A stretch of 64,000 nt of DNA from a phage (GCA_033286805.1 GCA_033286805.1_4727.1); one strand, 5' to 3'. Shown: positions 872-44,862, numbered from the stretch's first letter. Made by a program: numbers and translations. The notes: generated from the letters alone by a model not told the origin.

Positions 872-886
872 TTAACACCCCTTAGG

Positions 887-1771: not shown

Positions 1772-1787
1772 GTCTTTTCCTATTTAA

Positions 1788-2639: not shown

Positions 2640-2649
2640 TGTTTATTCC

Positions 2650-3585: not shown

Positions 3586-3644
3586 GGTGACCTCCTCGCC
3601 AGGAATTAGATAAAAAAGACTTTACGATTTGCTGCGCTATCACG

Positions 3645-5936: not shown

Positions 5937-6083
5937 CTGGTAGACTTCGGAAACCTTGAGGTTTAACCGTTCTGCCGTGATGTCGCTTTTAATAATCAGG
6001 GTGTCCGTTAGACGCTGCACGCTTTCCGAATAAAGCTGATAGTCAGTGTTGGACACGATCGGTCCTCCAAGGAGCCAGTGTAA

Positions 6084-8993: not shown

Positions 8994-9023
8994 ACGGATG
9001 TAAAAAAAATAACACATAGTTAA

Positions 9024-9057
9024 CCTTCTCCCCAACCCGTAAGGGAAGGGGAGAAGG
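9024..9057. terminator. bidirectional GC-rich hairpin between convergent genes (CCTTCTCCCC / AACCCGTAAGGGAA / GGGGAGAAGG)
   Basis: perfect 10-bp stem; A8 run upstream on plus strand, so a T-run follows the hairpin on the minus strand; flanked by CATAG and CTATG. Confidence 0.6.
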
Positions 9058-9074
9058 GCTATGCGCTATTTAAC

Positions 9075-9350
9075 TTATCTCGAGGTTAACCACGATTCAA
9101 TTGTGGTGAGGTTGCTTCGCAATACGCGCCAACTAGGGTGTGGTGGGATCACAGCACCTTGGTCGATTACGGTTAGCTGAGCCTGGTACTTCTGTTGCAT
9201 ACGGGCTACCGTAGCGTTTACCGAAAGGAAAAGCTGGTAACGTTCGTACGCCGTCAGTACAGCATCCATTTGGATTGCTTCGGTTGCTAAAACGATTTCG
9301 CGTAAGTCCTTTGCGTCCATCGGGACAGTAATGAGTTTATAATGACTCAT
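9075..9350 (-). CDS. small hypothetical protein (91 aa)
   Basis: ATG at 9350 with AGGAAA RBS; ends just before the convergent hairpin. Confidence 0.5.
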   Translation of the reverse strand: MSHYKLITVPMDAKDLREIVLATEAIQMDAVLTAYERYQLFLSVNATVARMQQKYQAQLTVIDQGAVIPPHPSWRVLRSNLTTIESWLTSR

Positions 9351-15502: not shown

Positions 15503-15602
15503 GCTGACTTATGTATCACGGTGCCGGATGAATGTCCGGTGCAATGAAACCATCCGCAACGTTGTCGTCAAGAATATCATCCAACGAAGCAGCTACGGTA
15601 GT

Positions 15603-17825
15603 TCAGTTAGTCTGAACCGGCAGCTTGATGTTTTCAGTGTAGACCTTACGCAGGTTCACAACGTTAATCAGACCCAGCAGCGGGCAGTTGTTAACGAAGC
15701 GGCAGCGCGGCTGAACCATGGTTTCTTTAGAAACCTGACCGTTACGGGTAACCTGAGCAACAGATACCAGTTCCGGTACATACAGGAACATACCGAAGGT
15801 CAGCGGATCCGGAGAACCCTGGATACCACGAGACAGGGTCACGAAGATCTTATCGCGCAGCATGACGTTCGGGTTATCTACAACCACGAAGTTGAAGCTT
15901 ACACCAACGGTACGGAAATCGCCATCGGTCTGCAGGAACTGCGGGATGTAGTTGTCAGTTGCTACTACGCAACGCGGTTTCTCATCAGCGTTGGAAGACA
16001 GCAGCTGCAGAGCTGGCTGATAACCAGACTCAGAGTACATGCGGTATGCCATTTCACGAATCACGTTCATGATCGCAGCAGACACTTCAGCACGACGTTC
16101 TGCGGTGGTGGTACCCTGAACAGATTTCTCCAGGTCCAGGTTGATTTCTTCGAACCACGGACGGATCAGGTAACGACCGAAACCTTCGATCTGGATGTCA
16201 CCGAACTGACGGAAGCGAGAGGTCGCAACCGCTTTCAGTGCGTCTTTGTAGCTGAACAGTTTCTCAACCATCAGGTTGTCGAAACGTGCGTTAGCAGCTT
16301 GGATCAGAACGTCCAGGTCAGCAGCGTTTTCTTCCCAATCCAGCGGACGAGGAATGGAGAACGGAGCCAGCAGGCCGATTGCGTAACGTTCTTGCTTCAT
16401 GTTGAAGTCAAGGTGCTTACCGCGCTCACGACGGTTGCTGTTGTTACGGCGGATACGCAGTTCGTAACCAACCAGTTTGAAGCTCAGGTCTTCAGCCAGT
16501 TGTTTGAACTCTTCGCTCTTACGCGGTTGTTCGATGTTGTCCTGATCAACCAGGCGATACAGTTCAGCGTTAGCGCCGTTAACACGCAGACCCGCTTTCT
16601 CTACGTTGGAAGAACCGTAAACTTCGATCGCCAGCTGAGCAGCAGATTTCGCATCGATGATGTCCTGCAGCGCTTCAGCTTTCGCACCTTTAACGTCTTT
16701 GGTGTTCTCATCAACGAAGATGGAGTGAGTGTCGAACGCCAGGGTCATTTTGCGGAAGTCGCCTTCCAGGGATTTCTGGAAACCGTTGGTGATCAGACCA
16801 GATACGTCGAACGGTACGTAAGAGGTTTTGCTGTGCTTGGTAGATTTGATTTCCACCAGGATTTTGGTCAGCGTGATCTGGGCGTCCAGCGCGTCGGTGT
16901 TGTCGCTGTAACCGTTAGCCAGGATGCTATCGTCTTCAGCGATACCGATCATGTCGATCAGTTTATCAACAGCCAGGTAAGACGTTTTATAAGTTACGCC
17001 TTTAATTTCGATGTCACGCGGAGCAACGATAGTTTTGTCAACGAAGTACTGCGCGTTAGCATCGTCAGCACGATAGATCGGATGCAGATCGGTCACGTCG
17101 TTGGACAGAACGTCGTTGTACATGAACGCATCCAGCAGCGGACGACGTACCCAATCAGCCGGAGTACCGTCAGCGTTACGACGCAGGTGGTTGAACACCA
17201 GCGGACGACGGAAAGATACATCATAACCGATCTGGTTCGGAGCCAGAACGATGGTGTTGTACAGTTCGTTACCCATGCGGCTCAGACGAGAAGCCTTCAC
17301 GTTGAACACAACGGAGTACGGCATCATGTCACGCAGTTCTTTCTGGTCGTAGGACAGCTGAACCAGTTCTTCAGATTCGCAACCGCAGGAATCAGCAGCC
17401 ATCATGACGAAGTTAGAGCTATCGACTTCACGGCCAGACGGAGTGGTGCTGATGTTCATGGAACGTGCTTGTTTAGCATATTCCACCGGGTTGCCATGAG
17501 CCAGCATGATCAGTGCTGCTGCACGAGCCTGCTGTGCGTTCATGGTGAACAGCTGTTCTTCAATACGCTGCTTCTCTTCCGGAGTGGTGGTTTCGAAGCC
17601 CAGCATGGACAGAACCGGTTCTTCGGCTTTACGGATGTCGCTGCTGAAGCTCTTAACATCCATTTCGTTAACCAGTTTGTCCATGGATTTGAAATCAACC
17701 TTAGAAGCAGATTCCATAGACAGGAAGGTGTTCTCCAGACCTTTGTCTGCTGGTTTGCTACCATTAGCGGTCAGGAACTGGCGAGTGGCCGCGACCTGTT
17801 GGCTAAGAAGGGTTTTATCATTCAT
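15603..17825 (-). CDS. candidate major capsid protein (740 aa); alternative is tail sheath
   Basis: strongest codon bias in the window (CTG, CGT, GGT, GAA, AAA) indicating very high expression; the 740-aa size is in the range I recall for phiKZ-like major capsid proteins; AAAGGA RBS; hairpin immediately downstream; N-terminal region contains S/A/G-x-E sites compatible with prohead-protease processing. Confidence 0.55.
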   Translation of the reverse strand: MNDKTLLSQQVAATRQFLTANGSKPADKGLENTFLSMESASKVDFKSMDKLVNEMDVKSFSSDIRKAEEPVLSMLGFETTTPEEKQRIEEQLFTMNAQQARAAALIMLAHGNPVEYAKQARSMNISTTPSGREVDSSNFVMMAADSCGCESEELVQLSYDQKELRDMMPYSVVFNVKASRLSRMGNELYNTIVLAPNQIGYDVSFRRPLVFNHLRRNADGTPADWVRRPLLDAFMYNDVLSNDVTDLHPIYRADDANAQYFVDKTIVAPRDIEIKGVTYKTSYLAVDKLIDMIGIAEDDSILANGYSDNTDALDAQITLTKILVEIKSTKHSKTSYVPFDVSGLITNGFQKSLEGDFRKMTLAFDTHSIFVDENTKDVKGAKAEALQDIIDAKSAAQLAIEVYGSSNVEKAGLRVNGANAELYRLVDQDNIEQPRKSEEFKQLAEDLSFKLVGYELRIRRNNSNRRERGKHLDFNMKQERYAIGLLAPFSIPRPLDWEENAADLDVLIQAANARFDNLMVEKLFSYKDALKAVATSRFRQFGDIQIEGFGRYLIRPWFEEINLDLEKSVQGTTTAERRAEVSAAIMNVIREMAYRMYSESGYQPALQLLSSNADEKPRCVVATDNYIPQFLQTDGDFRTVGVSFNFVVVDNPNVMLRDKIFVTLSRGIQGSPDPLTFGMFLYVPELVSVAQVTRNGQVSKETMVQPRCRFVNNCPLLGLINVVNLRKVYTENIKLPVQTN

Positions 17826-17974
17826 TGAAAGTATCCTTTACAGAATTAACTTATATAAGTCGGTCGATAGACCATAGCGTACACGCGTGCATGCGCCACT
17901 ATAGTATCAGTAAACACTTACCGTTGTTTAGGCTGTGATACAACACTAAAAATGCCGCATAACTTTTCCCTACG

Positions 17975-20270: not shown

Positions 20271-20302
20271 CCCTCCTCCAACCCGTAAGGGAAGGAGGAG
20301 GG
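20271..20302. terminator. bidirectional GC-rich hairpin between convergent genes (CCCTCCTCC / AACCCGTAAGGGAA / GGAGGAGGG)
   Basis: perfect 9-bp stem; A9 run upstream on plus strand (T-run after the hairpin for the minus-strand transcript); GTTATGACC follows on plus strand. Confidence 0.6.
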
Positions 20303-21955: not shown

Positions 21956-21987
21956 CCCTCTCCCAACCCAGCAGGGAAGGGAGAGGG
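21956..21987 (-). terminator. GC-rich hairpin (CCCTCTCCC / AACCCAGCAGGGAA / GGGAGAGGG)
   Basis: perfect 9-bp stem immediately after the stop of gene 21994..22626; followed on the minus strand by TTCTATGCTGTCTTATTTCG. Confidence 0.55.
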
Positions 21988-27947: not shown

Positions 27948-30900
27948 TTACTTGTAGGCACCGCAATGGGCTTTGATGAGGAAAAGCACCGCTTGCATCG
28001 GTTTATTGAACTGTTGCCATAACGTCAATGCCGGATGGAACAGCCAATCTTCCAGGCCGAGAACAATACCGTAGTTAACGACATTATTAACATCGTTCTC
28101 AACGTTGAGTTCGCTATCCAGGAATTTATCGATTGAACGCAGGGTCTGCATGGCGTTGTCAGCAATAAGCCAAGCTTCATGTGCTTCACGAGCCGCACGC
28201 AGCACTGCCTCCAGTTCGCTGATAGTAGCTACCGGTAATTCCTCACTGGTGAGGTCGTCAGAAACCGTAAACTGGCGATTGATACCGGTGTAGATCCACT
28301 GCATCAGTTTCGCTGCTTCCTCGTTCGGGTTGTTACGCGTTGTCGCATAAGTCGCGCTCACCTTCACGATGTGCGTTTCACCAAGATACGCTTTGGAACC
28401 AACACCTTTACGATCACTGTCTTTCCACGGTTGTACGGTAGCGACCATGAGCTTATCCCATTTCTGAATAGGAATACGCTTCAGACCAACAACCGATCCA
28501 GCGGATGTTTCGGACTGGTTGCTCTTCCGCACGTCACTGAGTTCACGATCGATAGCAACGATTAATTCACGCGTCATGTTACCAAGCATTTTGATTTCAC
28601 CCAACGCAGCGATGAGCTTCTTCACATCGGTAACAGGTTCACCACCGATGGTAAGATGACGGATGAAACGTTTCAGAATAATCCGTTCTGCTGCTGGGTT
28701 ACCGCGACGCGCTTTAGCCAACGCTTGCTGTGTTTCGGCGAACAGCTTATCCCATGGAGCCGTAGCGGCGGTATAGTAACGATGGTTGGTTTCAATCCAG
28801 TTACCGATACGGTTGACCGCGGTCTTAACGGTATCCATGAATCCTTCCATCGCAATTTCGGTAGCTTCGACGTTACCCTGGAAGTTATCAGGACCGATCT
28901 CGCGTGCCGCTACCAGAATACCTTCCACTGCACTCACCGCATGACGACCGATAGCCAGATTTCGCTGCGCTTCTTCAGCACGCTCAACGAATTCCACCAC
29001 CGCAGGATCGTCGACGATTTCCGCCTCGGCAACAGCACGCGTACCCGCATCACCTTCCAGCGTTTCGATGGTGACAACCGGATCGTTTTCACCAGCAACA
29101 TCCTGGTACTCTTCCTGTTTGAGTTCGCCGTTATCGACCGCAGCGACAGCGGTGAGTATACGGACGGTAACATCACCGAGTTCTTTCGCAGCGAATCCGT
29201 AGACGGTACATGCTGTTGTCGCAAAGTTCATCAGTGTGCGTGTGCGTTTAACGATGTAACCAACATCGTAATCGTTGCCGCTCTTATCGATGTCGCGGAT
29301 TAACCGTTCAGCTGTCTCCTGAAGCTGTGTAGCTGCTTTCAGAAGGTCCTCATCAAACAGTTTCGTTGACGCATCGATCAGCATATCAACACTAACGTTA
29401 GACGGCACAGCATCATCCTGCTGTTTCATGGCGCTAAGTTCGTCGCGGAACTTACGAATACCGTCTAAAGCGGCGTCGGCGCTATGTCCGAACGCGGCCA
29501 CGCCAGACATTGTTGTTGCTGTCAGCATGTCCGTATCAGCGTTTGGACTTTCGCCTTCTTTAAGATCCTTCAGCTGGTCGAAGAACTTACGGGATGCTTC
29601 AGCGATACGTTTGCTGTCTTTTACCGCGTTTACGATTTTATCGACGGATTTAGCGTCGTTTGCAAGCAGCGTATCGAGTTTGTTCCATTCGACATCGACT
29701 TTCGTCGCATCCTTAGTATCGCTTGGCGGAGGAAGCAGTTTCATCACTGGGGTTGTGCGTTGTTCTTTGGTCAGCTTGTTGGCCTTCCCTTCGATTTTTT
29801 TCTTATTAACACCAAAGAGATTTTTCAAACGCGCCACGATGGCTTTTAAGAACTTCACAACCGCTTCGTAAACCGATTTCAGAATCTGTTTAAAGCGACC
29901 CGGCTGCTTTTCCCCGTCTTCCAGATTAAGATCGCTGTTCAGTGCGACATCAAGCTGTTTGTACGATTCCATGATGTATTCGTCTTTGATTTCAGGACGA
30001 ATCTCGAAGCTTTCCATCGGACCTTCAGCCGGACGGAATTCCATTTTCAGTTCGCCTTGCAGAGTAGGGTCGACAATGGCGATCGCTTCACCCTGACCAT
30101 CAGCGTTAAAGCGTTCAGCGTAACGAGTACGGCGAACAATAACACTCTTATCCCCATCAAGACGACGTACCACCATGGTGCCAGGAATGTACGGTTGTTC
30201 TGTTTCAATGACGGTTACATCTGTCTCACCTTCACCGAGAATAACAGAAGCGCGCTGTTCAACAACAGGAACATCTAATACGCCACGGGCTTCCAGCTCT
30301 TGATGAATTTCGAACGACTCTTGTTTCAGATCTTCATCTTCTTCGTTTTCGTCGTCTTCATCATCGTCACCTTTGGTGTTTTCATCACCCTTGGTGGTTG
30401 TGTCGTCGGTGGCACCAGCGTCAGCGTCGGTGTTAGCAGGTTCTTCGGACGCAGGTTCGGTGGTGTTGTCCTCCGTGGACGACCCGTCAGTGTTATCGAC
30501 CTCAACATCGCCTTGCAGTTCTGTTTCCTGAGCAACTGCTTCGGCTTTCTGCTCACCGGTATTACCATCATTAGCGTCGACAACAGGTTGTTCGTCAGCG
30601 ACGGTATCTTCAACCTTTTCTACTTTCTCTACGACACGTTTAATCACGGTGACTTTGATGGGTTCTTCCGTTGTTTTGGTTTCTGGCGTCACCTCGGCTG
30701 CCGCAGCCACTGTTTCAGCAACAGGTTCTGCTTTTTCCGGTTCGACGACATTACCTTTAACCCCTTGGGTGGTTTCTGCAGGTTGTGCTGCCTGTTCGAT
30801 TTGCGCCGGATTGGTTGGATCGATGGCGTTAGCCGCATCCTGAATCTTGTTCTTCAGGTTGTCGCGGTCAGCGTTAACGGTCGGGTCGTTGGTCACTTTC

Positions 30901-31334
30901 GGTGCCGGTGTTTCGGTCGGTGCGTTTGCCGGATACGGGTTCTTCGGCTCTTCGCCAGGTGCGGTCGGTACCGCGATCAGAACGAACGGTTGAACATCGT
31001 TACCGTCTTCCATGGTTACGCCACCGTTGCTCGGTGTGAAACGAATTCGTAAACTGCCATCAATAGGACGGGTCACAATAACAGCACGTACGACATCCTC
31101 GCCGTTCTCATCCGTGCTACGAATCACACGAACAGCGTCATCAACGGTAGCCCCTTCCTCGAGCGTATCTGATTCGATCGTCGCTTCGATGCTGTCTGGC
31201 CGTGCCGCTGTAGGTAATGCGATCACTTGCTCTTCTTTATCAGTAGAAAGCGTTGCTTTGACTTCGATAGGTGTATCGCCGCTTTCCAGGTTAAGATGCG
31301 ACTTACGCATCAGATCAGCTAACGATTTTTTCAT
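27948..31334 (-). CDS. very large hypothetical protein (1128 aa) with about 180-aa acidic T/E/D-rich low-complexity region; inner-body or ejection-protein-like
   Basis: ORF track; AAGAGGAA RBS; acidic low-complexity region at about aa 150 to 330; alanine-rich helical remainder. Confidence 0.6.
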   Translation of the reverse strand: MKKSLADLMRKSHLNLESGDTPIEVKATLSTDKEEQVIALPTAARPDSIEATIESDTLEEGATVDDAVRVIRSTDENGEDVVRAVIVTRPIDGSLRIRFTPSNGGVTMEDGNDVQPFVLIAVPTAPGEEPKNPYPANAPTETPAPKVTNDPTVNADRDNLKNKIQDAANAIDPTNPAQIEQAAQPAETTQGVKGNVVEPEKAEPVAETVAAAAEVTPETKTTEEPIKVTVIKRVVEKVEKVEDTVADEQPVVDANDGNTGEQKAEAVAQETELQGDVEVDNTDGSSTEDNTTEPASEEPANTDADAGATDDTTTKGDENTKGDDDEDDENEEDEDLKQESFEIHQELEARGVLDVPVVEQRASVILGEGETDVTVIETEQPYIPGTMVVRRLDGDKSVIVRRTRYAERFNADGQGEAIAIVDPTLQGELKMEFRPAEGPMESFEIRPEIKDEYIMESYKQLDVALNSDLNLEDGEKQPGRFKQILKSVYEAVVKFLKAIVARLKNLFGVNKKKIEGKANKLTKEQRTTPVMKLLPPPSDTKDATKVDVEWNKLDTLLANDAKSVDKIVNAVKDSKRIAEASRKFFDQLKDLKEGESPNADTDMLTATTMSGVAAFGHSADAALDGIRKFRDELSAMKQQDDAVPSNVSVDMLIDASTKLFDEDLLKAATQLQETAERLIRDIDKSGNDYDVGYIVKRTRTLMNFATTACTVYGFAAKELGDVTVRILTAVAAVDNGELKQEEYQDVAGENDPVVTIETLEGDAGTRAVAEAEIVDDPAVVEFVERAEEAQRNLAIGRHAVSAVEGILVAAREIGPDNFQGNVEATEIAMEGFMDTVKTAVNRIGNWIETNHRYYTAATAPWDKLFAETQQALAKARRGNPAAERIILKRFIRHLTIGGEPVTDVKKLIAALGEIKMLGNMTRELIVAIDRELSDVRKSNQSETSAGSVVGLKRIPIQKWDKLMVATVQPWKDSDRKGVGSKAYLGETHIVKVSATYATTRNNPNEEAAKLMQWIYTGINRQFTVSDDLTSEELPVATISELEAVLRAAREAHEAWLIADNAMQTLRSIDKFLDSELNVENDVNNVVNYGIVLGLEDWLFHPALTLWQQFNKPMQAVLFLIKAHCGAYK

Positions 31335-31349
31335 AAAGCGTTATTCCTC

Positions 31350-32456
31350 TTAAAAGTAATATTTCAGCGCCTCGCGAGAGACATCAAGCATAGCCGCTGT
31401 TGAATTCGTAAAGAACTCGGCATAGCCCACAAGCGGCACCTTGATCCACGCGGTATACGCTGTAAGGTATCGAGAAAGGGCTACCATAGCATCATCAGAA
31501 GCAGTAGTAACTGACAACTGACCTTGTTGACGATAAACGTCGTTAAGTTTTGCTTGTAGATTCCCTGCGATTTCGAGTAACTCGTTGGCGTACTTTTTAC
31601 GATGGTAACTAACCAGTAAATCAACACCCGTATTTACCGACTCGAGTAGCACACCAACTTGTTCTAATGTTGGCATTGTAACCACCATATCCCGTTCAAC
31701 TGACGGTACATCCTGGACTTCAAACCGTGCGGATTGAATGGTGAGGGACTGTTGAATTGAACCAGAACCTGAGGCGGTAACCTGATCGAGTCGTAGCGTA
31801 CGGTTACCCAGTAACGTTACATTGACGAGTCTCGATTCGTTCAGCGTACTGTAGACTTTGTGCAATAACGTATACGCGTCACGGTTAATCACATCGATTA
31901 ATGCGGTATCCGTCTGTTTTAAGATAATGTCGAGCGCTCTATCTAACGTATTAGCGAACTGCTTGAAATCATCACGGAACGACGAAGACAAGAGATATTC
32001 AGCGATTGCCAAATTCTGTTTGTATAACGTATTCCCAGTTGTGAAGTCGAATCCAAAACTGTTCCCATACCGTAGGTGCGGTGCCAGCGTTGACGAAGCT
32101 TCGAAGCTTTGCGCGATGGGTTTACGACCAACGGCTTTTGTGTAGTGACGGCGGATGTTGCTGAGTTCGAGCTGTAGTGCGCGACTACGATCGATAAACC
32201 GTGCGATAAACGCGGTAATGTTCCGCAACGTTGTCCAGATCGCATCGATGATGGCTTTGATGATTTTCATCGCAAGCTGATTGTACGATTCCATCGTGAG
32301 GAGATCAGCACTTTCTGTGGTATAACCGGTTGCCGGAATACCGCCTGCTTGCTGATAAATAAGCTGGTGAATTTGTCGTTGCGTTGCTGTCTCTGGCACA
32401 GGTAATGTTTTTAACAAGCTTAACGCTTGAATCTGTCCGTCATAGGTCTGCAGCAT
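31350..32456 (-). CDS. head/inner-body-like paralog family member 1 (about 368 aa)
   Basis: ORF track start 32498 lacks an RBS and overlaps the upstream gene by 59 nt; ATG at 32456 has GAGGAAA RBS; architecture shared with the next four genes. Confidence 0.55.
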   Translation of the reverse strand: MLQTYDGQIQALSLLKTLPVPETATQRQIHQLIYQQAGGIPATGYTTESADLLTMESYNQLAMKIIKAIIDAIWTTLRNITAFIARFIDRSRALQLELSNIRRHYTKAVGRKPIAQSFEASSTLAPHLRYGNSFGFDFTTGNTLYKQNLAIAEYLLSSSFRDDFKQFANTLDRALDIILKQTDTALIDVINRDAYTLLHKVYSTLNESRLVNVTLLGNRTLRLDQVTASGSGSIQQSLTIQSARFEVQDVPSVERDMVVTMPTLEQVGVLLESVNTGVDLLVSYHRKKYANELLEIAGNLQAKLNDVYRQQGQLSVTTASDDAMVALSRYLTAYTAWIKVPLVGYAEFFTNSTAAMLDVSREALKYYF

Positions 32457-33741
32457 TGCTGGTTTCCTCAAGTTCGAGATGCGCGTCAAGATAATCATTA
32501 AGACCGTCGATGACGTCGCAGACAGTTAACAGGAATCGGGCAAAAGCAACCGCCTGGAAGCCGACGACGTTACGCGCGATACCCACACGTTGAACGATAG
32601 CGGATGCGGTGGTATCGTCGTTGTCCATCTGTTGTAGCAAACGCTCGTAAGGTTGAATCCATTCGTCCTGGTCGGCAAGGCTTGTTTCAAGACAACGTTT
32701 AAATTCCAACTGTCGTAGCGTAGACCATAACGTACTTAATGCGTTGATGATCGCGTTGGTTCCGTCGATAACATCGTTTAACGGTAAGAAACGGAATCCG
32801 TCTTTTGCTGATTGGAAAGGTACAGCCTCCCACACAACACTGAACTGCGTTCCTGATGCGTCTTCGATGTTGTGTAATTTAAGGTAGGAAGCACCAACAG
32901 GAACGTCAACGACCAGATCGTCTGTTCCGGTAGGTGTTAACGGTTTCTCGCATAACGCATCGTTGATGACTTCGAGGATATTCTCCCAACAGGCTTCGTT
33001 TTCTGCAGCGATACCTTCTTTGTTATCCGCTGATGGTGCTTTTAGTAGCTGCATTAATAACGGATCGAGTTGACGATGCCATGCTGCGAGGATTCCTGTG
33101 TTCGTTACGATGTTTTCTGCGGTTTGTCGTAAATCAGCAATGCTGCTCACCGCACCGCCTTTCGGATGAAGATATCGCCAGTTGTAAGGAAAGTTCTCCC
33201 AGAATGCGTTATCTTCATTAACATCGTATTCGGAAATAGTTTTCAACGCAGCCGCTTTCTTTAATAACGGCTTCACCTGACGAACGAATCGACGATAACA
33301 ACGATTGCAGATATCGATCGCGTAGCGGTATAATTCGTTCATGTAAAGCCATAACGCTCGGGTTGCTTCTTTTGCGGTCTTGTCAAAACTTTCCATGTTC
33401 AAGCTCATCCCGCTGGAAGTTTCCTCTTCCATACCTTCGATGATGTGGTTTGGATCCATCCCCATCCCGGCTGCTGCGGTCGATGCGATATGTTTGATGG
33501 TGTTGATATCGCGTTCCTCGACTTCAGCCATGTTTGGGACAATATCCAGCCTGAGTTTATTTAATGTTTGAAGGTGTTGTTCACCTTCTTTCATCACCGT
33601 GTTTGTTTCGTCGATTGAGTGAAACTGATTCTCAATATTACTGGCATCGAGAATGTTGCCAGCGATACCGAACGATTCTACAGGTTCATCATCAATCCCT
33701 TGAAACAACGATGTCATGGGTTGTTGTAACACGTTTTCCAT
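32440..33741 (-). CDS. head/inner-body-like paralog family member 2 (433 aa)
   Basis: ORF track; AGGAG RBS; ...IKHIASTAAAGMGMDPNHIIEG... aligns with ...IRQIASTSAANLGMSDEDMFQ... in the 429-aa paralog. Confidence 0.6.
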   Translation of the reverse strand: MENVLQQPMTSLFQGIDDEPVESFGIAGNILDASNIENQFHSIDETNTVMKEGEQHLQTLNKLRLDIVPNMAEVEERDINTIKHIASTAAAGMGMDPNHIIEGMEEETSSGMSLNMESFDKTAKEATRALWLYMNELYRYAIDICNRCYRRFVRQVKPLLKKAAALKTISEYDVNEDNAFWENFPYNWRYLHPKGGAVSSIADLRQTAENIVTNTGILAAWHRQLDPLLMQLLKAPSADNKEGIAAENEACWENILEVINDALCEKPLTPTGTDDLVVDVPVGASYLKLHNIEDASGTQFSVVWEAVPFQSAKDGFRFLPLNDVIDGTNAIINALSTLWSTLRQLEFKRCLETSLADQDEWIQPYERLLQQMDNDDTTASAIVQRVGIARNVVGFQAVAFARFLLTVCDVIDGLNDYLDAHLELEETSNAADL

Positions 33742-33848
33742 TTGGGACTCCTACGTAGGAAAATCTTGGCGGGTGATCATGTCCGCCATTTACCTTCTGA
33801 ACCGTTGATTCAGAAGTCAAAAGATAACCGGATACCAACGTCATAAAA

Positions 33849-33880
33849 CCTTCCTCCAACCCAACAGGGAAGGAGGAAGG
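33849..33880 (-). terminator. GC-rich hairpin (CCTTCCTCC / AACCCAACAGGGAA / GGAGGAAGG)
   Basis: perfect 9-bp stem after the stop of gene 33891..35180; followed on the minus strand by TTTTATGACG. Confidence 0.55.
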
Positions 33881-33890
33881 GATATAGTGG

Positions 33891-35180
33891 TTATGCTTTT
33901 TCGGTTACAGCGTCGAAGTATTTCGCTGCAGCAAATACAGCATCTGCATATTGACGGTTAGCAACACGGAGGATCTTAGCTGCTAATACTGCACTCAAGC
34001 GTGCCATTTCAGAAATGGCGCTTATATAAGGGCGAACGGTTTCACGATCTGCTTCCGGTAGATTGTCGAGCATACCGTCCCATTTAGTTTTAATTTTCAT
34101 ACCGTTTAGTTTAGCAGTACGTTCGACAGTACTCGTTAAACTTTCGGTCTGGCGGAAATATGCAGGGTCAACAATACGAAATACGTTAAGATACGAAGTC
34201 AGTGCGGCTTTCAATTCGTCGTCGTTATTGAAAATGTTCGCGTTTTCGATATTACCGGTCGCGGTTTCTTCAACTTCGATCTGAATATTCTTCACGAGCG
34301 CGCAGGCCTTAATGGTATCTTTCTCAGCCAAAAGAGCGTCAAGACCTTTAACAACATATCGTTTCCCACCGCTTTCTGGTATTTTGAGTCCTTTTAACGC
34401 AGGCTTGATAGCGTAAATATAATCGTCCAGAATATCGGCAAGTGTCGTCAAATCGGTTAGTTTATTAACTTTCTTGTTAATGTCGTCAGTTTGGAGTAGT
34501 AAAAAAGTGGATGCTTGTGTGGATGCCGCTAACTGCTCAATATGTTTACGAATCTCCAACGCGTTAACCGTTTTTGCGTTAGGGAACATGCTAATCATAT
34601 TCCCGGTCGGTTTATTTAGTTGTTTGATGTGACGCTCGCCTTTATTTACAGCGGTTGCAACATCAGTAATTTTTTTATACGCTACAGCAAGGTTTTTGAA
34701 AAGCAGCTGAATCAGTTTACATAACTGTTCAGCCATGTTCGCAATGATTACCCAAACTGCGTATAACGCTTGCGCAGCGCGTTCTTTAAAGCCTTCCAGT
34801 ACGATAGCTTGCCCTTCCACCAAACGATCGTCAGCTTGGAACATGTCTTCATCAGACATCCCCAGGTTTGCTGCTGACGTCGAAGCAATCTGACGGATAA
34901 GGGCGATGTCGCTCGCACGTGCTTCAGGGATCGTAGGTGCGATCATGTACGCGGTATCTTCCAGCGTTGCTGAGGTACGCACCGCAATTTCAGCCAGTTC
35001 GCTGGATTCATCGATTGTCTCGTCGGTACGTCGAATCACCAACTCAACTTCGTCCTCTTCGATTTCTGCGTTGGGATCATTTTGCTCCGCTGGAATTGCC
35101 GCAAGAAGATCTTCGGCGCTGAGCAGTGCGAGTTCGAATGCGTTTTTATTGACGTTATCAAAAAGAGAGATGCGGGCCAT
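33891..35180 (-). CDS. head/inner-body-like paralog family member 3 (429 aa)
   Basis: ORF track; AAGGAA RBS; acidic N-terminal region then ...LVEGQAIVLEGFKERA..., matching ...VEVGEALVVEGFKDTV... in the 438-aa paralog. Confidence 0.6.
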   Translation of the reverse strand: MARISLFDNVNKNAFELALLSAEDLLAAIPAEQNDPNAEIEEDEVELVIRRTDETIDESSELAEIAVRTSATLEDTAYMIAPTIPEARASDIALIRQIASTSAANLGMSDEDMFQADDRLVEGQAIVLEGFKERAAQALYAVWVIIANMAEQLCKLIQLLFKNLAVAYKKITDVATAVNKGERHIKQLNKPTGNMISMFPNAKTVNALEIRKHIEQLAASTQASTFLLLQTDDINKKVNKLTDLTTLADILDDYIYAIKPALKGLKIPESGGKRYVVKGLDALLAEKDTIKACALVKNIQIEVEETATGNIENANIFNNDDELKAALTSYLNVFRIVDPAYFRQTESLTSTVERTAKLNGMKIKTKWDGMLDNLPEADRETVRPYISAISEMARLSAVLAAKILRVANRQYADAVFAAAKYFDAVTEKA

Positions 35181-35189
35181 GTTAGTTCC

Positions 35190-36506
35190 TTAACCTTTGG
35201 TATAAGCTTTAACGAGAGTGTTGATAAATGAGGTCAATGCACGAAGATATTGGTAAGCGAATTGGTTTTCAATACGGTTCTCTTTACCGCAAAGCAGAAT
35301 CGCGCGCTTAACGAGCTTAGGATAGATCTCAACGTACGGTTGGTAGCTTGCATCAAAATTCTGTTCGTTGAAGCGTTTCATGGTGATTTCCTGGATGCGC
35401 TCCATGGTACGAATTTTATTGCGAGAGAACATCTCAGAGAAAGCACGTCCGCGTTTTGTTACCATCAACAGATCTTTCGCGAACGTCAGTTGTCGAACGC
35501 TACGCAAATCGTCAGGTGTCGGCAGGACGTACGTTTCCGGGTCACTATCCCATTCAACATCTTCAACGACAATATCCAAGTCGAGGTAACGTTTAACCGC
35601 ATCGACGATATTGTCTTTTGATGCGTCGAATTCTTTCAAGAAGACCGCGCCGTTGATGTAACGAATGCGTTTTCCGGAAACCGTTGGAGTGATAACGTCA
35701 GTACCTTCCACGGAACCGCGATTTTCCAGCGTTGATTTGACAGCGTTCAAGAAAGACAGGTAATCAACGGGAAGTTTTTCAACCTTATCTAAATGGAAGT
35801 CGATGATGTTTAACCCCAACCCATCAATAACCGAATAGCCGTCCGATTTAAGGAACATCTGATTGAAGGTATCAATGTTGCTTTTCAGCGTGTCTACACC
35901 ACCAACGTTGTTACGGTTAGGGAAAAGTGTCCGCCACTCCGCTTTAAACGCAACTTCTTTATTTTCCTTGTATTTGCCTTTAGGCATTTGTTCGAGGTCT
36001 GCAACGGCTTTCTGAAAATTGCGCGTCTCGTCGTAAACAAGACGGGTAAGCTTCTCGAAGGCTGCTGCCAAGGTCAGGGCAATATCAACAATGATATCCC
36101 AGATCTTTTTCATGGCTTTTACAACGGTGTCCTTAAACCCTTCAACAACCAAAGCTTCTCCAACTTCAACACGATCGGTTGGAGTCAGCAATGCTTCGGA
36201 GGGTAGACCCAGAGCAATCGATGCGGATTCTTGCACATTACGAACTAATGCAACGTCACTGTAGTTAGCCGATTCGATAGTCGGAGCAACATCAAAACTG
36301 ATTTCCCGTAATGCGGCAACAGCAGGGAAAGCACGATCAAGTGCATCTTCATGTTCGTCGATTGTCGCCAAACGTAATTCAACGCCATCAGCATCGATGA
36401 CATCGGCTGTAGGCTCCACAGCAAGCGCCTCAGCAACAATAGGATCTTTTTCAAACGCCTCAAGGCTGATATCGCCTTGGGTCGCAAATAGCGGTATGTG
36501 TACCAT
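35190..36506 (-). CDS. head/inner-body-like paralog family member 4 (about 438 aa)
   Basis: ORF track start 36530 is TTG; ATG at 36506 has GGAGA RBS; preceded by hairpin plus TTCTATGCC about 43 nt upstream. Confidence 0.6.
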   Translation of the reverse strand: MVHIPLFATQGDISLEAFEKDPIVAEALAVEPTADVIDADGVELRLATIDEHEDALDRAFPAVAALREISFDVAPTIESANYSDVALVRNVQESASIALGLPSEALLTPTDRVEVGEALVVEGFKDTVVKAMKKIWDIIVDIALTLAAAFEKLTRLVYDETRNFQKAVADLEQMPKGKYKENKEVAFKAEWRTLFPNRNNVGGVDTLKSNIDTFNQMFLKSDGYSVIDGLGLNIIDFHLDKVEKLPVDYLSFLNAVKSTLENRGSVEGTDVITPTVSGKRIRYINGAVFLKEFDASKDNIVDAVKRYLDLDIVVEDVEWDSDPETYVLPTPDDLRSVRQLTFAKDLLMVTKRGRAFSEMFSRNKIRTMERIQEITMKRFNEQNFDASYQPYVEIYPKLVKRAILLCGKENRIENQFAYQYLRALTSFINTLVKAYTKG

Positions 36507-36554
36507 GTGTTGTCTCCAGTAATGATTCAAAAGATAAACCTGAGCGGCATAGAA

Positions 36555-36586
36555 CCCTCTCCCAACCCGTCAGGGAAGGGAGAGGG
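36555..36586 (-). terminator. GC-rich hairpin (CCCTCTCCC / AACCCGTCAGGGAA / GGGAGAGGG)
   Basis: perfect 9-bp stem immediately after the stop of the highly biased 440-aa gene; TATG on both flanks. Confidence 0.6.
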
Positions 36587-36608
36587 AATATGTCAGTTTA
36601 TTAACTGA

Positions 36609-37931
36609 TTACTGCTGTGCTGCGTCAGCCGGTTTCTCAGCCGCCTGGCCGCCGTACTCTTTCAGCATTTTAGCAACGCCATCCAGGACAGCGTTACCTG
36701 CCTGAACACCGTATTTCATCAGACCGGTCTGCGGGTTCACGTAGCAGGAACGTGCGTCTTTCAGCGCAGACAGTACAGCTTGAACACGCTGTTTTTCCTG
36801 AGCGGAAACTTCGCCTTTCTTAGACAGATCGGCTTCCATATCGTCACCGAATTTAACAGCGTCTTTGAAGCCCTGGGATTTCTTACCGATGTTGCCTTTC
36901 AGCGCCAGCAGTTTGTCAGCCAGTACTTCAACACCGCTAACCGCAGCAGCCAGCTGGTTCAGGGACAGGACGGTAGCTTCAACTTCTTTTGCTTCGCCGG
37001 TGCGTTCCCAGGTTACTTTACCATCGTTGGCTTTGAAACCCCAACCTGCCGGACCAGCAACGTCAGCAATCGCCGGAGCGTTCAGTTTATCAGCGTACTC
37101 GGTGTGAGATTTAGCAACAACGGTACCAACGAATTTATCAGCGCGATCGTCAGCAGCCTTCATTGCTTTCTCGAAGGTGTCAGCGATTTTGGTCGCGCCG
37201 GTAACCAGATCGTCGCCACCGATGTAGCCAGAAACGCCGCTACCCAGTTTAACTTTGGTATTTTTAGCAGCGCCTTTACGTTTGGCGATCATTTCTTTCA
37301 GTTTAGCGGCACGTGCTTTCAGCTTGGTTGCGCCGTCGAAGATACGATCCATGAACTTCACGAAGGTTTCCCAGGAAGTCTTCAGGAAGTTCTTGATGGT
37401 TGCCCACAGTTTCTGCCACCATTTTTGTTCTTCCAGGAAGATCATGTTGGTTGCATCGTAGCGGGAAGCGGAACCACCGAAGCTTTCGAAGGACGGCATG
37501 GTTTCCGGCAGTTTGAAACCGATAGTACCGCACAGACGTTTCAGATTACGCATGTGTTCCTGAGCGGTTTGTGCAGACATACCACCGTCTTTCAGGTAGC
37601 TTTCGGTTGCAACAACGGTTTCCGTCAGTTCATCCATGGCTTCGTCCATGGCTTCTGCGGTTTCGTCGTCTTTTGCAATTTCGATAACAACAGCATCAAC
37701 CTGCTCGATATCACCACGAACTTCGATAGCCAGTTCGGTTTCAGCTGCGGTATCTTCAGCGATTTCAGCACGTTCGGTCAGTTCAGCCACAACGGTTTCA
37801 TCCGCTGGTGCAGCATCAGCTGCCGGTTCTGCTTCAACGGTTGCCGCTGCATCCGGATCGATCTCAGCAGCCAGTTGAACCAGCTGTGCGTTAGATGGAT
37901 TTGCGACAAGACGATCAAAAATAGAAGGCAT
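36609..37931 (-). CDS. abundant head/inner-body-like paralog family member 5 (440 aa)
   Basis: second strongest codon bias in the window; AAAGGAAA RBS; acidic A/E/D/T-rich N-terminal about 110 aa with A-x-E sites, then K/A-rich helical region. Confidence 0.65.
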   Translation of the reverse strand: MPSIFDRLVANPSNAQLVQLAAEIDPDAAATVEAEPAADAAPADETVVAELTERAEIAEDTAAETELAIEVRGDIEQVDAVVIEIAKDDETAEAMDEAMDELTETVVATESYLKDGGMSAQTAQEHMRNLKRLCGTIGFKLPETMPSFESFGGSASRYDATNMIFLEEQKWWQKLWATIKNFLKTSWETFVKFMDRIFDGATKLKARAAKLKEMIAKRKGAAKNTKVKLGSGVSGYIGGDDLVTGATKIADTFEKAMKAADDRADKFVGTVVAKSHTEYADKLNAPAIADVAGPAGWGFKANDGKVTWERTGEAKEVEATVLSLNQLAAAVSGVEVLADKLLALKGNIGKKSQGFKDAVKFGDDMEADLSKKGEVSAQEKQRVQAVLSALKDARSCYVNPQTGLMKYGVQAGNAVLDGVAKMLKEYGGQAAEKPADAAQQ

Positions 37932-37995
37932 AATTTGTTTCCTTTACAATAAATTGCACATTAGCTAATGCGGCTTAAGTGAACCATCAGCCCAC

Positions 37996-38526
37996 TTAAA
38001 AGCCCTTAAAACCCGGTGCCATAGGTTGCCCAAACACCGCATTCAAAGTACATATGATGTCCTGGATGCCATTGTCCCAATGGAGCCAAGTACGCACCAT
38101 CTCTTCGTCTGACAACGTGATATAACTCATAAGTTTACCGCTGCTTTCCAGACGTTGGTGTGAACTTAACGACTGACGATCTGACCAGTTATCAATCAGT
38201 TGACCAGCAATCTGAACGTTCGTGTCTCGTCTACCCGTGTGAATGAATCGTAGCGTATCACGGATAAACTCCAGACTGGTGAAGTTCAGATTTGGGTTAT
38301 GGCTGTTCATTTCCACCCAATCGGTGATGGGGTACATCAAACGATAAAGGGTAGAAAGAACCTGACGTTCATATTTCCAGTCATCGAGAGGAGTACCGTC
38401 GACCAGACGCTGATACAAACTAACAACGTCACGATCGTAGTTCTCCTGGCGTTTTACGCCGTTAACCGGAAAACCAAAGAACCCGGTACCGTATAATGTT
38501 AAAGGGACGTCACGAAGTGCATTCAT
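37996..38526 (-). CDS. hypothetical protein (176 aa)
   Basis: ORF track; ATGA overlap with the upstream gene. Confidence 0.55.
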   Translation of the reverse strand: MNALRDVPLTLYGTGFFGFPVNGVKRQENYDRDVVSLYQRLVDGTPLDDWKYERQVLSTLYRLMYPITDWVEMNSHNPNLNFTSLEFIRDTLRFIHTGRRDTNVQIAGQLIDNWSDRQSLSSHQRLESSGKLMSYITLSDEEMVRTWLHWDNGIQDIICTLNAVFGQPMAPGFKGF

Positions 38527-39425
38527 ACAGCCGCCTCTTCTTTTCGTTTAATATCGTAACGAAGTTTCTTCAGTCGCTCTTCGTGATATTCGATCTGCTG
38601 CTGGATTTTTGGATCGTTGCCCGCATTCTGTTGCTTTTGCTTCAGTGACAAAATCCAATACTCCAACGCTTGGGCTTCTTCTTTGGCTGCTTGTAATGAT
38701 GCTTCTTCACGTTCGCTACGCCAGATGCGATAACGGTAAATAAGCGTGCTGGTCATTTGAGTGTCGGACCATGAGCCCATACGCATCGGGTCAGTATTAC
38801 CCGCGTTGTATAAGCCATTACCAACACCGTCTTCATCAGAAACCACAACATCCGGGATTTTATCCAACCCAGCAAGGATCTGTTGTTTCTGTCCGCACAG
38901 CACCTCGGTGGCAATGGCAAAACCGTACATGTTGGCGGTCAGGTAAGCAATCTCGTTTTTGGTGAAGAACTCACCAAGTGCTTTATCACCACCTGGCATG
39001 CTTTCGCAGATGACCGTTGCACGAAGCAGCGTACGAGCATAGCTAACGTAGAAGCCCAGGGACTCAACAAGACGTACCAGAGCAGCTTCTTTGAAACTTA
39101 GGCCGTCAGCGGCAACATCGATTTCCAGGTTTTTGTTAACACGTTTAACAATTTCTGGAATCAGGTCAACAGCATTACGTAGCGCTAAGTGAACGTTTTC
39201 TACCCAGCTTCCGGAGCGAACGCGGGTTAAACGCTGGTGCAGATCCTTATCAGCAAGTTTCCATAAGGCGCTTTCTCCCTTTTGGAGAAGCGAAGCGGAT
39301 GTCTCGTAGTAAGGAATCGCGGTGTTGTTGATTTCGTCACGGATTGATTCGAGTGCGTCAGCAACACCGGTGCGTTTAAAAAGCGGCTTCAAACCGCGAA
39401 TGAATTCTTTAAAATCGATTGCCAT
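38523..39425 (-). CDS. hypothetical protein (300 aa)
   Basis: ORF track; ATG start. Confidence 0.6.
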   Translation of the reverse strand: MAIDFKEFIRGLKPLFKRTGVADALESIRDEINNTAIPYYETSASLLQKGESALWKLADKDLHQRLTRVRSGSWVENVHLALRNAVDLIPEIVKRVNKNLEIDVAADGLSFKEAALVRLVESLGFYVSYARTLLRATVICESMPGGDKALGEFFTKNEIAYLTANMYGFAIATEVLCGQKQQILAGLDKIPDVVVSDEDGVGNGLYNAGNTDPMRMGSWSDTQMTSTLIYRYRIWRSEREEASLQAAKEEAQALEYWILSLKQKQQNAGNDPKIQQQIEYHEERLKKLRYDIKRKEEAAV

Positions 39426-39464
39426 GAGTGAGCACCTATGCTATTTCGAAACAGGTTGCGTGTA

Positions 39465-40571
39465 TTAACGAATCTGTGGGACGTTTCCGGTACGGAGCGC
39501 CTGGAGGATCGTCAGGAGATCGGAACCCGAAGTTGACGAACTGTTGGATTTTTCCAGTTGCTTGAAGCTTACGGTGGTCCCTTGATCCAAGCTGTGGAAA
39601 TAGAAGGTCACCATCTCTTCAGCTTCGTCGATGATGATCAACTGCATTGCGAGGGCTTCAGCCATGACTTTCTGACGTGTGGTATAGTCAGATAAACGAC
39701 GTCCGATCTTACGCTCGATGGCTTCCTGGTTAGCCTTAGAGATGATATAGGTGGAGGCGATGGCTCCAGAAGAAGGGATCTTTGTGCTCGCTGCAGCTTT
39801 TGCGGCATTGATGCGCGCAGCGTTAACAGCCTTACGGATACCCTCTTTATCCATGCGTGAGATTCGTTTATGTTCACGAACCAGATCGCTAAGCAGGATC
39901 ATATCGCTCCAGAAAGATAGCTCACCTGCCATCATGCGATGCCAACGTGCTCGCCAGGTGTTCTGTGGGCCACCGATCGCTAAAATCGATGCAAGCACTT
40001 CCGCCGGTGAACTTGCGATACGCATGCTGATGTTCAACGGCATTTTCATCGTTGCCTGACCATCGGTCAGCGTCACGGTTAAGAACTTGCCGGTAACCGC
40101 GTTCGCATCTTTGTTCAGCAATTCGATCGCAGCGTCGCTGGCTCCAACATCGGCGATATTTTTTTGTTTCCCCTGCAGGTTGAATCCTTTGTCATCAAGG
40201 AAAACAAGGCTTTTGCTATCCGCACTTTCCAGCGCTAATTTAACAGCCTTATCCATCAGGTTAGCGTTACGATTTGGGTTCACACGACCCAGCGTTTTAT
40301 CGACACTGATGTTACCCACCTGCATGATGGTATTCAACGCCAGTAAATAGAACCCGGTATACATGTTTTCAGCGGTGCGCATGCAGTTGCCTAACGCATT
40401 GCGTGCGTCGCTATAATACAACTCACGTTCAAAGATCAACGGCGCGATAACGCGTGAAGGTTGTGAGAGTTCAACCAGCGAACCTGGCTGGATAAGTTTA
40501 TTAACTTCGTAGACTTTAGCGATACCGGACGCAACAACGTTAACAGCGTCGGCAATTTCTGATGCTACCAT
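39465..40571 (-). CDS. hypothetical protein (368 aa)
   Basis: ORF track; AAGGA RBS; divergent from the plus-strand gene at 40606. Confidence 0.6.
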   Translation of the reverse strand: MVASEIADAVNVVASGIAKVYEVNKLIQPGSLVELSQPSRVIAPLIFERELYYSDARNALGNCMRTAENMYTGFYLLALNTIMQVGNISVDKTLGRVNPNRNANLMDKAVKLALESADSKSLVFLDDKGFNLQGKQKNIADVGASDAAIELLNKDANAVTGKFLTVTLTDGQATMKMPLNISMRIASSPAEVLASILAIGGPQNTWRARWHRMMAGELSFWSDMILLSDLVREHKRISRMDKEGIRKAVNAARINAAKAAASTKIPSSGAIASTYIISKANQEAIERKIGRRLSDYTTRQKVMAEALAMQLIIIDEAEEMVTFYFHSLDQGTTVSFKQLEKSNSSSTSGSDLLTILQALRTGNVPQIR

Positions 40572-44830: not shown

Positions 44831-44862
44831 CCCTCCTCCAACCCGTCAGGGAAGGAGGAGGG
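44831..44862. terminator. bidirectional GC-rich hairpin between convergent genes (CCCTCCTCC / AACCCGTCAGGGAA / GGAGGAGGG)
   Basis: perfect 9-bp stem between the plus-strand stop (44808) and minus-strand stop (44872); TATG on both flanks. Confidence 0.6.

Follow-up and report, generated by a model that had tools for sequence, protein, structure and literature searches.

An array of six genes for PF12699-type internal head proteins in a close relative of the jumbo phage Goslar

The locus and its counterpart in Goslar

Five genes of similar size follow one another on the minus strand between positions 31350 and 37931 of a 64,000-nucleotide stretch of phage DNA (GCA_033286805.1; this whole stretch is referred to here as the window). 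We call them, from left to right, A to E. A reading made from the sequence alone (the sequence-only reading) had described five consecutive minus-strand genes of 368, 433, 429, 438 and 440 amino acids (aa), and open reading frames (ORFs) of exactly these lengths are present. Their start codons agree with the annotation of Escherichia phage vB_EcoM_Goslar, and B overlaps the start of A by 17 nucleotides (nt). However, the array is larger than the five genes first described: the adjoining gene F, which encodes a protein of 1128 aa with a C-terminal PF12699-like region, is a sixth member. We conclude, with a probability of roughly 85%, that the region is an array of six late structural genes, in the order E-D-C-B-A-F, encoding internal head proteins of the PF12699 family (phiKZ_IP, phiKZ-like internal head proteins) in a Goslar-like chimallivirus (Table 1).

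Positions 31350-37931 align over their whole length with positions 58510-65091 of the Goslar genome (MK327938) at 96.6% nt identity. The Goslar counterparts of A to E are Goslar_00054 to 00058, every one of them annotated as a hypothetical protein, and the window proteins share 97.0-99.1% aa identity with the corresponding Goslar proteins gp54-gp58. The phage is a close relative of Goslar, not Goslar itself. Goslar is a nucleus-forming jumbo phage of E. coli and belongs to the Chimalliviridae.

The array has already been described for Goslar. A preprint of April 2026 presents the structure of the Goslar virion and its analysis by liquid chromatography coupled to tandem mass spectrometry (LC-MS/MS), and reports that gp53 and gp58 carry PF12699 and that gp54-gp57 have the same fold by AlphaFold (bioRxiv 10.64898/2026.04.21.720040; hereafter the Goslar preprint). 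Goslar gp53-gp58 are orthologous to the window genes, stand in the same order and are 97-99% identical to them in aa sequence. The sequence-only reading, which had placed the genes among phiKZ-like head inner-body or ejection proteins, was correct in outline, and we present no new kind of system; rather, the published Goslar account is confirmed by independent computation. The preprint does not treat N-terminal processing, the B/C/D subfamily, the missing acidic N-terminus of gp54 or the hairpin/TATG elements. Our increments beyond it are a gp54-type protein without the acidic module, a B/C/D subfamily whose copy number varies between lineages, an N-terminal module that is the conserved part of the proteins, candidate cleavage sites, and hairpin+TATG cassettes.

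Table 1. Coordinates in the window of the array genes and of the elements discussed in the text
Feature	Coordinates	Strand	Remarks
Gene F	27948..31334	-	1128 aa; orthologue of Goslar gp53; sixth array member
Gene A	31350..32456	-	368 aa; orthologue of Goslar gp54
Gene B	32440..33741	-	433 aa; orthologue of Goslar gp55; low-copy paralogue
Palindromic hairpin of a different kind, C/B gap	33767..33788	-	annotated in Goslar as 'putative transcriptional terminator'
Hairpin after C	33849..33880	-	11 nt past C stop, then TATG at 33842-33845; separates D-C from B-A-F
Gene C	33891..35180	-	429 aa; orthologue of Goslar gp56; low-copy paralogue
Gene D	35190..36506	-	438 aa; orthologue of Goslar gp57; low-copy paralogue of the B/C/D subfamily
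Hairpin after E	36555..36586	-	23 nt past E stop, then TATG at 36548-36551; separates E from D
Gene E	36609..37931	-	440 aa; 99.1% aa identity to its orthologue, Goslar gp58
Acidic N-terminal region of E	37602..37931	-	residues 1-110; ends at candidate site V-A-T-E110/S111
gp59, gp60 and gp61 (synteny anchors)	37996..40571	-	directly upstream of E
Other hairpins of the family, intergenic	9025-9056, 20271-20302, 21956-21987, 44831-44862	-	pattern match

Relationships among the six proteins and to phiKZ

Direct comparison relates three of the six proteins. The sequence-only reading had credited all five of its proteins with a conserved block and quoted four motifs from it, all of which are present (IRQIASTSAANLGMSDEDMF in C and IKHIASTAAAGMGMDPNHII in B; LVEGQAIVLEGFKERA in C and VEVGEALVVEGFKDTV in D). 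Pairwise alignment, one of the checks that it proposed, is significant for B, C and D: BLASTP gives E-values of 1e-18 for C-D, 7e-9 for B-D and 3e-8 for B-C, and hhalign gives 98% for C-D. Each BLASTP alignment is limited to the N-terminal ~200 residues, which are the only part common to B, C and D. The claim of a shared block does not extend to A and E. Neither these two nor F has significant similarity to any other member by BLASTP or by hhalign with single sequences or shallow profiles, even when orthologues are added. The alignments are shallow because word-indexed homologue searches with A, E and the B/C/D profile found no sequences beyond the Goslar-like clade and one 45% relative. Since the direct similarity of E and A to B, C and D is not significant, the common ancestry of all members rests on profile, fold and synteny.

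The profile evidence is strongest for E, which matches PF12699 over residues 85-419 with 76 bits (E = 4.2e-21); the gathering score of the family is 27 bits. Matches under this threshold were found for A (22.9 bits, 5.6e-5, nearly full length), for the N-terminal part of D (22.6 bits, 7.4e-5) and for residues 680-1128 of F (24.3 bits, 2.2e-5), in which the PF12699-like region spans ~811-1065. B and C gave no match to the PF12699 hidden Markov model. Orthologues and intermediates provide further links. In the 45%-diverged relative L005, the A orthologue, A5, matches PF12699 with 63.8 bits (2.2e-17), and the B orthologue, Y5, matches it at 3.2e-5. A profile built from orthologues of C, D and B and run against 1.84 billion representative proteins matched 14 proteins. 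With 93-144 bits, its distant matches (E-values of 5e-4 to 9e-4) are strong members of PF12699, and P0122, a relative found with this profile and aligned over the N-terminal two-thirds, scores 28.6 bits, above the gathering score. In addition, an 'EGFMDTV...W' motif in F aligns with an 'EGFKDTV...W' motif in D and C. F has acidic stretches at residues 1-450 and ~700-850 and amphipathic W/I/K-rich helices at ~490-515 and ~835-855. A fusion of two PF12699 modules in F is unsupported, the middle piece having no Pfam match and hhalign of residues 1-620 against 621-1128 being negative.

The predicted structure of C points to the same family. An AlphaFold2 model based on a 15-sequence alignment consists almost entirely of long helices (predicted local distance difference test score, pLDDT, 74; predicted template modelling score, pTM, 0.65). 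Compared with BFVD by Foldseek, the model has 72 matches at E<=1e-3, the best at 7e-9, that extend over the full length with template modelling (TM) scores of 0.5-0.59. Among the top 50 matches, most of which are nameless, every named one is a protein of 366-881 aa from a jumbo phage (PhiEaH1, 201phi2-1, PhiPA3, Psa21, Noxifer, RP12 and others), where it is called 'internal head protein' or 'virion structural protein' or is uncharacterised. The helix-rich, elongated fold of PF12699 type is thus predicted here for C only. The AlphaFold2 model of A, made from three near-identical sequences, had a pLDDT of 40, was unusable and was set aside. A phmmer comparison of E with the PDB sequences returned nothing.

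The genes upstream of the array tie the locus to phiKZ. The product of gp59 matches PF25618 (PhiKZ_gp91 vertex-binding protein) at 1e-46 and, by phmmer, phiKZ gp91 itself at 4e-14; gp60 matches phiKZ gp90 at 3e-15 and gp61 matches phiKZ gp89 at 5e-36. In phiKZ, gp89-gp91 are followed by the six genes gp92-gp97 (440/435/505/547/371/816 aa), five of which are annotated as internal head proteins. The window array occupies the matching positions (440/438/429/433/368/1128 aa), and the locus is collinear with phiKZ gp87-gp97. Each array consists of six genes, of which the fifth is short and the last is the longest, and phiKZ gp92-gp97, which with gp162 and gp163 are known as 'inner body' proteins, belong to the same Pfam family. 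None of the window proteins has a significant phmmer match to phiKZ gp92-97, and one-to-one orthology is therefore unassignable by sequence. Because synteny has been kept while pairwise similarity between the two arrays is undetectable, we regard the six-gene array as old and fast-evolving.

Taken together, the matches of E (76 bits) and A5 (63.8 bits), the links through the B/C/D profile, the fold match of C and the synteny with phiKZ uphold the assignment to the phiKZ-like internal head family made in the sequence-only reading. All six proteins probably belong to PF12699, the evidence being indirect and coming by way of Pfam, orthologues and intermediates, the C fold and synteny.

The number of B/C/D-type genes is still changing, because there are two such genes in L005 and three in the window. 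The L005 array (positions 10001-19668 of L005, from the 180 kb metagenome contig ERZ926030) consists of E5, X5, Y5, A5 and F5, which encode 449, 463, 453, 387 and 1380 aa, respectively. E5 is 45% identical to E, A5 and Y5 are orthologous to A (2e-32) and B, respectively, and X5 is C-like. Either the D/C pair arose by a lineage-specific duplication in the window or L005 lost one copy.

Abundance and expression of gene E

The sequence-only reading noted very strong preferred-codon usage in the 440-aa gene and took it to imply high abundance. Both statements stand. The effective number of codons (Nc) of E is 29.1, its E. coli codon adaptation index (CAI) is 0.736 and its frequency of optimal codons (Fop) is 0.83; CTG makes up 97% of its Leu codons and ACC 89% of its Thr codons. 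This is as extreme as in the gene for the major capsid protein (MCP; 15603-17825, minus strand, 740 aa), which has an Nc of 30.1 and a CAI of 0.753. Among the 47 ORFs of the window, the MCP gene alone falls into the same class as E, all others having a CAI of <=0.47. CAI was computed with weights after Sharp and Li, on which neither Nc nor the raw codon counts depend. Long stop-free ORFs lie antisense to both biased genes, one of 766 aa (15528-17828, plus strand) over the MCP gene and one of 390 aa (36780-37952, plus strand) over E. These are artefacts of the codon bias and would mislead a gene caller that selects the longest ORF.

Published LC-MS/MS data on Goslar agree with the codon usage. 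All six orthologues are present in Goslar virions. Estimated copies per virion are ~2150 for gp58, ~330 for gp53, ~70 for gp54, ~50 for gp55, ~60 for gp56 and ~50 for gp57, with 1615 for the MCP, label-free copy numbers being accurate to +/-50% at best (bioRxiv 10.64898/2026.04.21.720040). E is thus made at the level of the MCP and reaches ~2000 copies per virion, or ~75-100 MDa of protein; for the other five, the numbers are in the tens to hundreds. This distribution, with one dominant member, differs from that in phiKZ, where several members are present at ~100-200 copies. A gp58-sfGFP fusion is packaged and injected by Goslar; in the early-infection vesicle it is found with the injected DNA, and at a later time next to the phage nucleus (PMC10541120). 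We conclude that the six proteins are alpha-helix-rich paralogues packaged inside the capsid and that E is the dominant PF12699 internal head and injected protein. PF12699 proteins are among the most abundant virion components of chimalliviruses and enter the cell with the genome, and their role is, in the words of the Goslar preprint, 'a key unsolved mystery'.

The intergenic regions contain elements that could set the relative expression of the array genes. A conserved, GC-rich hairpin (CCCTCYYCC-TT-CCC-NNNN-GGG-TT-GGRRGAGGG; 12 bp, a TT/TT internal mismatch and a 4-nt loop) occurs six times on the minus strand of the window, where 0.27 copies are expected by chance. Compensatory changes affect 6 of its 12 base pairs and none of the pairs is broken. 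Five of the six copies are followed within 12 nt by TATG (P ~1e-7), and TATG, with its G as +1, is the late promoter of phiKZ. The Goslar record carries no annotation of this hairpin family at the two gaps checked. We suspect that the elements are cassettes of a terminator (or RNA-end hairpin) and a late promoter, which is the likely reading of the sequence pattern. If so, the two elements within the array would partition expression into E, D-C and B-A-F. This partition, together with the codon bias, would account for the ~40-fold excess of E, and the hairpin+TATG elements may thus set the 40-fold dosage difference between E and the low-copy members.

E and the MCP gene also share an identical TGTAAAGGA located 8 nt ahead of the ATG (minus strand, 37932-37960 and 17826-17850, respectively). 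The 64-nt gap upstream of E contains no TATG; because of this, the E promoter may lie inside gp59 or further upstream. Scans for sigma-70 promoters and for generic terminators gave counts at or below those expected from shuffled sequence.

The N-terminal module, its possible cleavage and the role of the proteins

An acidic N-terminal region had been ascribed to all five proteins of the sequence-only reading. It is present in B, C, D and E, in which residues 1-100 have net charges of -12, -15, -15 and -24. In A, the net charge is 0, and A also lacks the block conserved in B, C and D. If E is split at E110, residues 1-110 (11.6 kDa) have an isoelectric point (pI) of 4.05 and residues 111-440 (35.6 kDa) have a pI of 9.29. 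The remainder of C after the N-terminal module has a pI of 8.3. In E, C and B, conservation within the Goslar-like clade is highest over the N-terminal ~150 residues (0.91-0.98 identity per 25-residue bin) and lowest in the middle (0.56-0.9, with minima of 0.56 in C and 0.74 in E). This makes it less likely that the acidic region is mere filler. In this respect the proteins resemble the internal proteins of T4, with a conserved module for targeting or capsid binding attached to a variable payload.

C is the most variable member within the Goslar-like clade and E is second. Compared with the relative L007, C (window 33891-35180, L007 12775-14064) has 79.5% aa identity and a synonymous divergence (dS) of ~1.0, and E has 86% aa identity; the neighbouring genes have 95-99.5% aa identity and dS values of 0.07-0.4. 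The ratio of nonsynonymous to synonymous divergence (dN/dS) is <=0.25 in all genes compared with L007. The divergence of C and E looks like allelic replacement by recombination and not like positive selection.

Known phages provide several precedents for an N-terminal module that is cut off in the prohead. The SPN3US proteins gp53 and gp54 (paralog family A, PF12699), which are ejected and very abundant, lose N-terminal propeptides of 125 and 124 residues; the two paralogues resemble each other at their extreme N-termini. The SPN3US protease, gp245, cuts after A-x-E with a preference for V at P4 and S at P1', and also uses extra sites inside the propeptide; the propeptides are cut into small pieces, which the authors infer to be cleared from the head. 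The phiKZ array proteins are likewise acidic at the N-terminus (net -6 to -20), with an S-L-E site close to it; the prohead protease gp175 cleaves them, they are packaged, and most of them are injected. For example, gp175 cuts gp93 after SLE-13. In phiKZ, however, residues 14-84 of gp93 and 19-134 of gp162 stay on the inner capsid surface after cleavage as a fibre-like cement, and the helix-rich domains of such proteins are thought to form the inner body. The internal proteins IPI, IPII and IPIII of T4 work alike, with N-terminal targeting, a cut by the prohead protease after Glu, and injection with the DNA, although they are small, have an unrelated fold and a targeting sequence of 10-20 residues, and belong to another family.

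Candidate sites for such a protease are present in the window proteins. The A-x-E sites that the sequence-only reading listed for the 440-aa protein, ATE and AQE, are found at E110 and E125. The first of these, V-V-A-T-E110/S111, agrees perfectly with the SPN3US logo, having A-x-E with V at P4 and S at P1', and the 110-residue acidic region that it ends parallels the SPN3US propeptides. The two cases differ in that processing in SPN3US was seen by mass spectrometry whereas the window is known from sequence, and in that SPN3US has only two PF12699 members and the window six. ATE110 is conserved in 50 of 52 orthologues of E, and AAE23, AIE70 and AQE125 are conserved in all 52. The N-proximal sites SLE16 in D, SAE23 in C and AAE23 in E resemble SLE-13 of phiKZ gp93. 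The MCP contains GCE150 and SEE153 just ahead of its first ordered residue, 158, which suggests the same protease specificity. A prohead protease gene was not found among ten further ORFs of the window, in a search that was not exhaustive.

In view of its conservation and of the phiKZ and SPN3US precedents, we postulate that B, C, D and E each enter the prohead by means of their conserved N-terminal part, which is ~110-150 residues long and acidic over the first ~110. The prohead protease would then cut the module at S/A-x-E, both at an N-proximal site (residues 16-23) and at a domain-boundary site such as VVATE110/S in E. Cleavage would free the more basic helical body of E (residues 111-440, pI 9.3) and of C (pI 8.3), which would sit with the DNA and later be ejected. 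The cleaved N-terminal segment would be either expelled or kept on the inner capsid wall like residues 14-84 of phiKZ gp93; thus, a segment that is 'removed' may be separated from the protein yet retained on the capsid wall. By analogy, cleavage of the acidic regions, which the sequence-only reading took to be propeptides, is somewhat more likely than not.

Several observations weigh against an array of processed internal head proteins. In addition to the lack of direct similarity of A, E and F to the other members, the C model has no Foldseek match in the PDB at E<=1e-3. A is without the acidic N-terminal region, and the sequences of B, C and D have no S/A/G-x-E site in common when aligned. 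Moreover, peptides from the regions expected to be removed have been detected in Goslar virion preparations. The part of the published peptide table that covers peptides beginning with A to ~E includes a gp58 tryptic peptide of residues 55-72 (area 4880) and a gp53 peptide that covers residues 43-69. The four gp58 peptides from residue 115 onward with an available area, one of them spanning AQE125, have areas of 168-9180, of the same order as that of peptide 55-72, and all of these gp58 areas are well under the per-peptide mean of ~124,000. The same part of the table contains no semi-tryptic peptide at a motif; the informative semi-tryptic peptides start with S, H or L and fall outside it. The virion preparation also contained host proteins, PhuZ and chimallin (bioRxiv 10.64898/2026.04.21.720040), and the N-terminal peptides may therefore come from uncleaved precursor. 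Lastly, according to the Goslar preprint, neither micrographs nor the C1 map showed inner-body density and symmetry expansion revealed none either, whereas the phiKZ inner body is visible in bubblegrams. Because of this, the label 'inner body' is uncertain for these proteins and is given by homology only.

Other readings of the array differ mainly in where the proteins reside and what they do there. The acidic or conserved N-terminal regions, instead of being disposable, could be functional segments that are retained, with or without cleavage, as a lining of the capsid and cement the capsomers, only the helical bodies being mobile or ejected. We consider this a real possibility, if somewhat less probable than an even chance. 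It has the precedent of the segments of the PF12699 proteins gp93 (14-84) and gp162 (19-134) seen in the phiKZ capsid structure, and it would fit the gp58 peptide 55-72 and the gp53 peptide 43-69 in the available part of the Goslar mass spectrometry data, although the impurity of that sample weakens the argument. Strong conservation of the N-terminal 150 residues in E, C and B is expected if they contact the conserved MCP, and a gp58:MCP ratio of ~2150:1615, near 1, fits a capsid lining. However, no fibre-like inner proteins are reported in the Goslar capsid maps, in which the resolution of the hexons is limited, and the SPN3US propeptides are cut small and inferred to be cleared from the head. 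The near-stoichiometry of E with the MCP, and its MCP-like codon bias, would also be expected if E were mainly an assembly scaffold or core of a T=27 prohead that has no canonical scaffolding protein, with virion presence and injection as by-products. The authors of the phiKZ structure raise the possibility that gp93 and gp162 drive assembly through their N-terminal segments, and empty, portal-less Goslar capsids without the vertex-binding complex fit this idea as well. Scaffolds, though, normally leave or are degraded, and gp58 stays in the virion at ~2000 copies, is delivered and persists as a focus in the cell; we therefore think a primarily scaffolding role for E unlikely.

A similar degree of doubt applies to the suggestion that the low-copy proteins A-D, instead of being ejected effectors, are stoichiometric structural parts of the inner vertex region (5 x 11 vertices = 55) and that only E is bulk internal and injected protein. 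The suggestion is allowed because the copy estimates of A-D (50-70) are near 55 and because the Goslar preprint describes, at the vertices next to gp65, an unassigned helical-bundle density 'reminiscent of the PF12699 fold' (bioRxiv 10.64898/2026.04.21.720040). Known 55-copy vertex-binding proteins scored 16-194 by the same method, and the array directly follows the gene of the vertex-binding protein gp59. On the other hand, label-free numbers with an error of +/-50% at best are a poor guide to an exact 55, most phiKZ PF12699 proteins are reported to be injected, and a single unassigned density is too small for four different proteins at 55 copies each. We can also imagine a combination in which one fold serves two classes of protein. 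E would be the injected, basic, DNA-associated cargo; A-D, at ~55 per capsid beside the vertex complex, would explain the PF12699-like density; the N-terminal module of B-E, which A lacks, would be a retained capsid-binding element; and the variable central domains, exchanged by recombination in C and E, would face the host after ejection and might act on the membrane of the early-infection vesicle. This combination is speculative, and we would be surprised if all of it were correct. By far the least credible reading is that the five genes encode unrelated helical, acid-rich proteins that share their architecture by compositional chance. A and E do lack significant pairwise or shallow-profile similarity to B, C and D, as this would have it, but the Pfam matches, the links through orthologues and intermediates, the fold match and the six-gene synteny with phiKZ contradict it. 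We thus favor an array of PF12699 internal head proteins, with E as the principal injected member.

Public assemblies contain many near-identical contigs of ~240 kb, some of which bear the label Escherichia coli, Salmonella enterica, Shigella sonnei or Enterobacter hormaechei, and the proteins P0010, P0020, P0060, P0062, P0077 and P0103 are matches to E, B and C from such contigs. The complete RefSeq E. coli genomes and PLSDB plasmids that were searched gave no match. Because the arrays are found in isolate assemblies but in none of the complete genomes or plasmids, Goslar-like phage DNA seems to be sequenced along with isolates, either because they carry it or through contamination.

Elsewhere in the window, two adjoining genes on the minus strand, 1788-2639 and 2650-3249, match DUF7941 at 1.4e-47 and 1.5e-39, respectively. 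Goslar gp22 and gp23, reported as very abundant virion proteins, are members of the same family (bioRxiv 10.64898/2026.04.21.720040).

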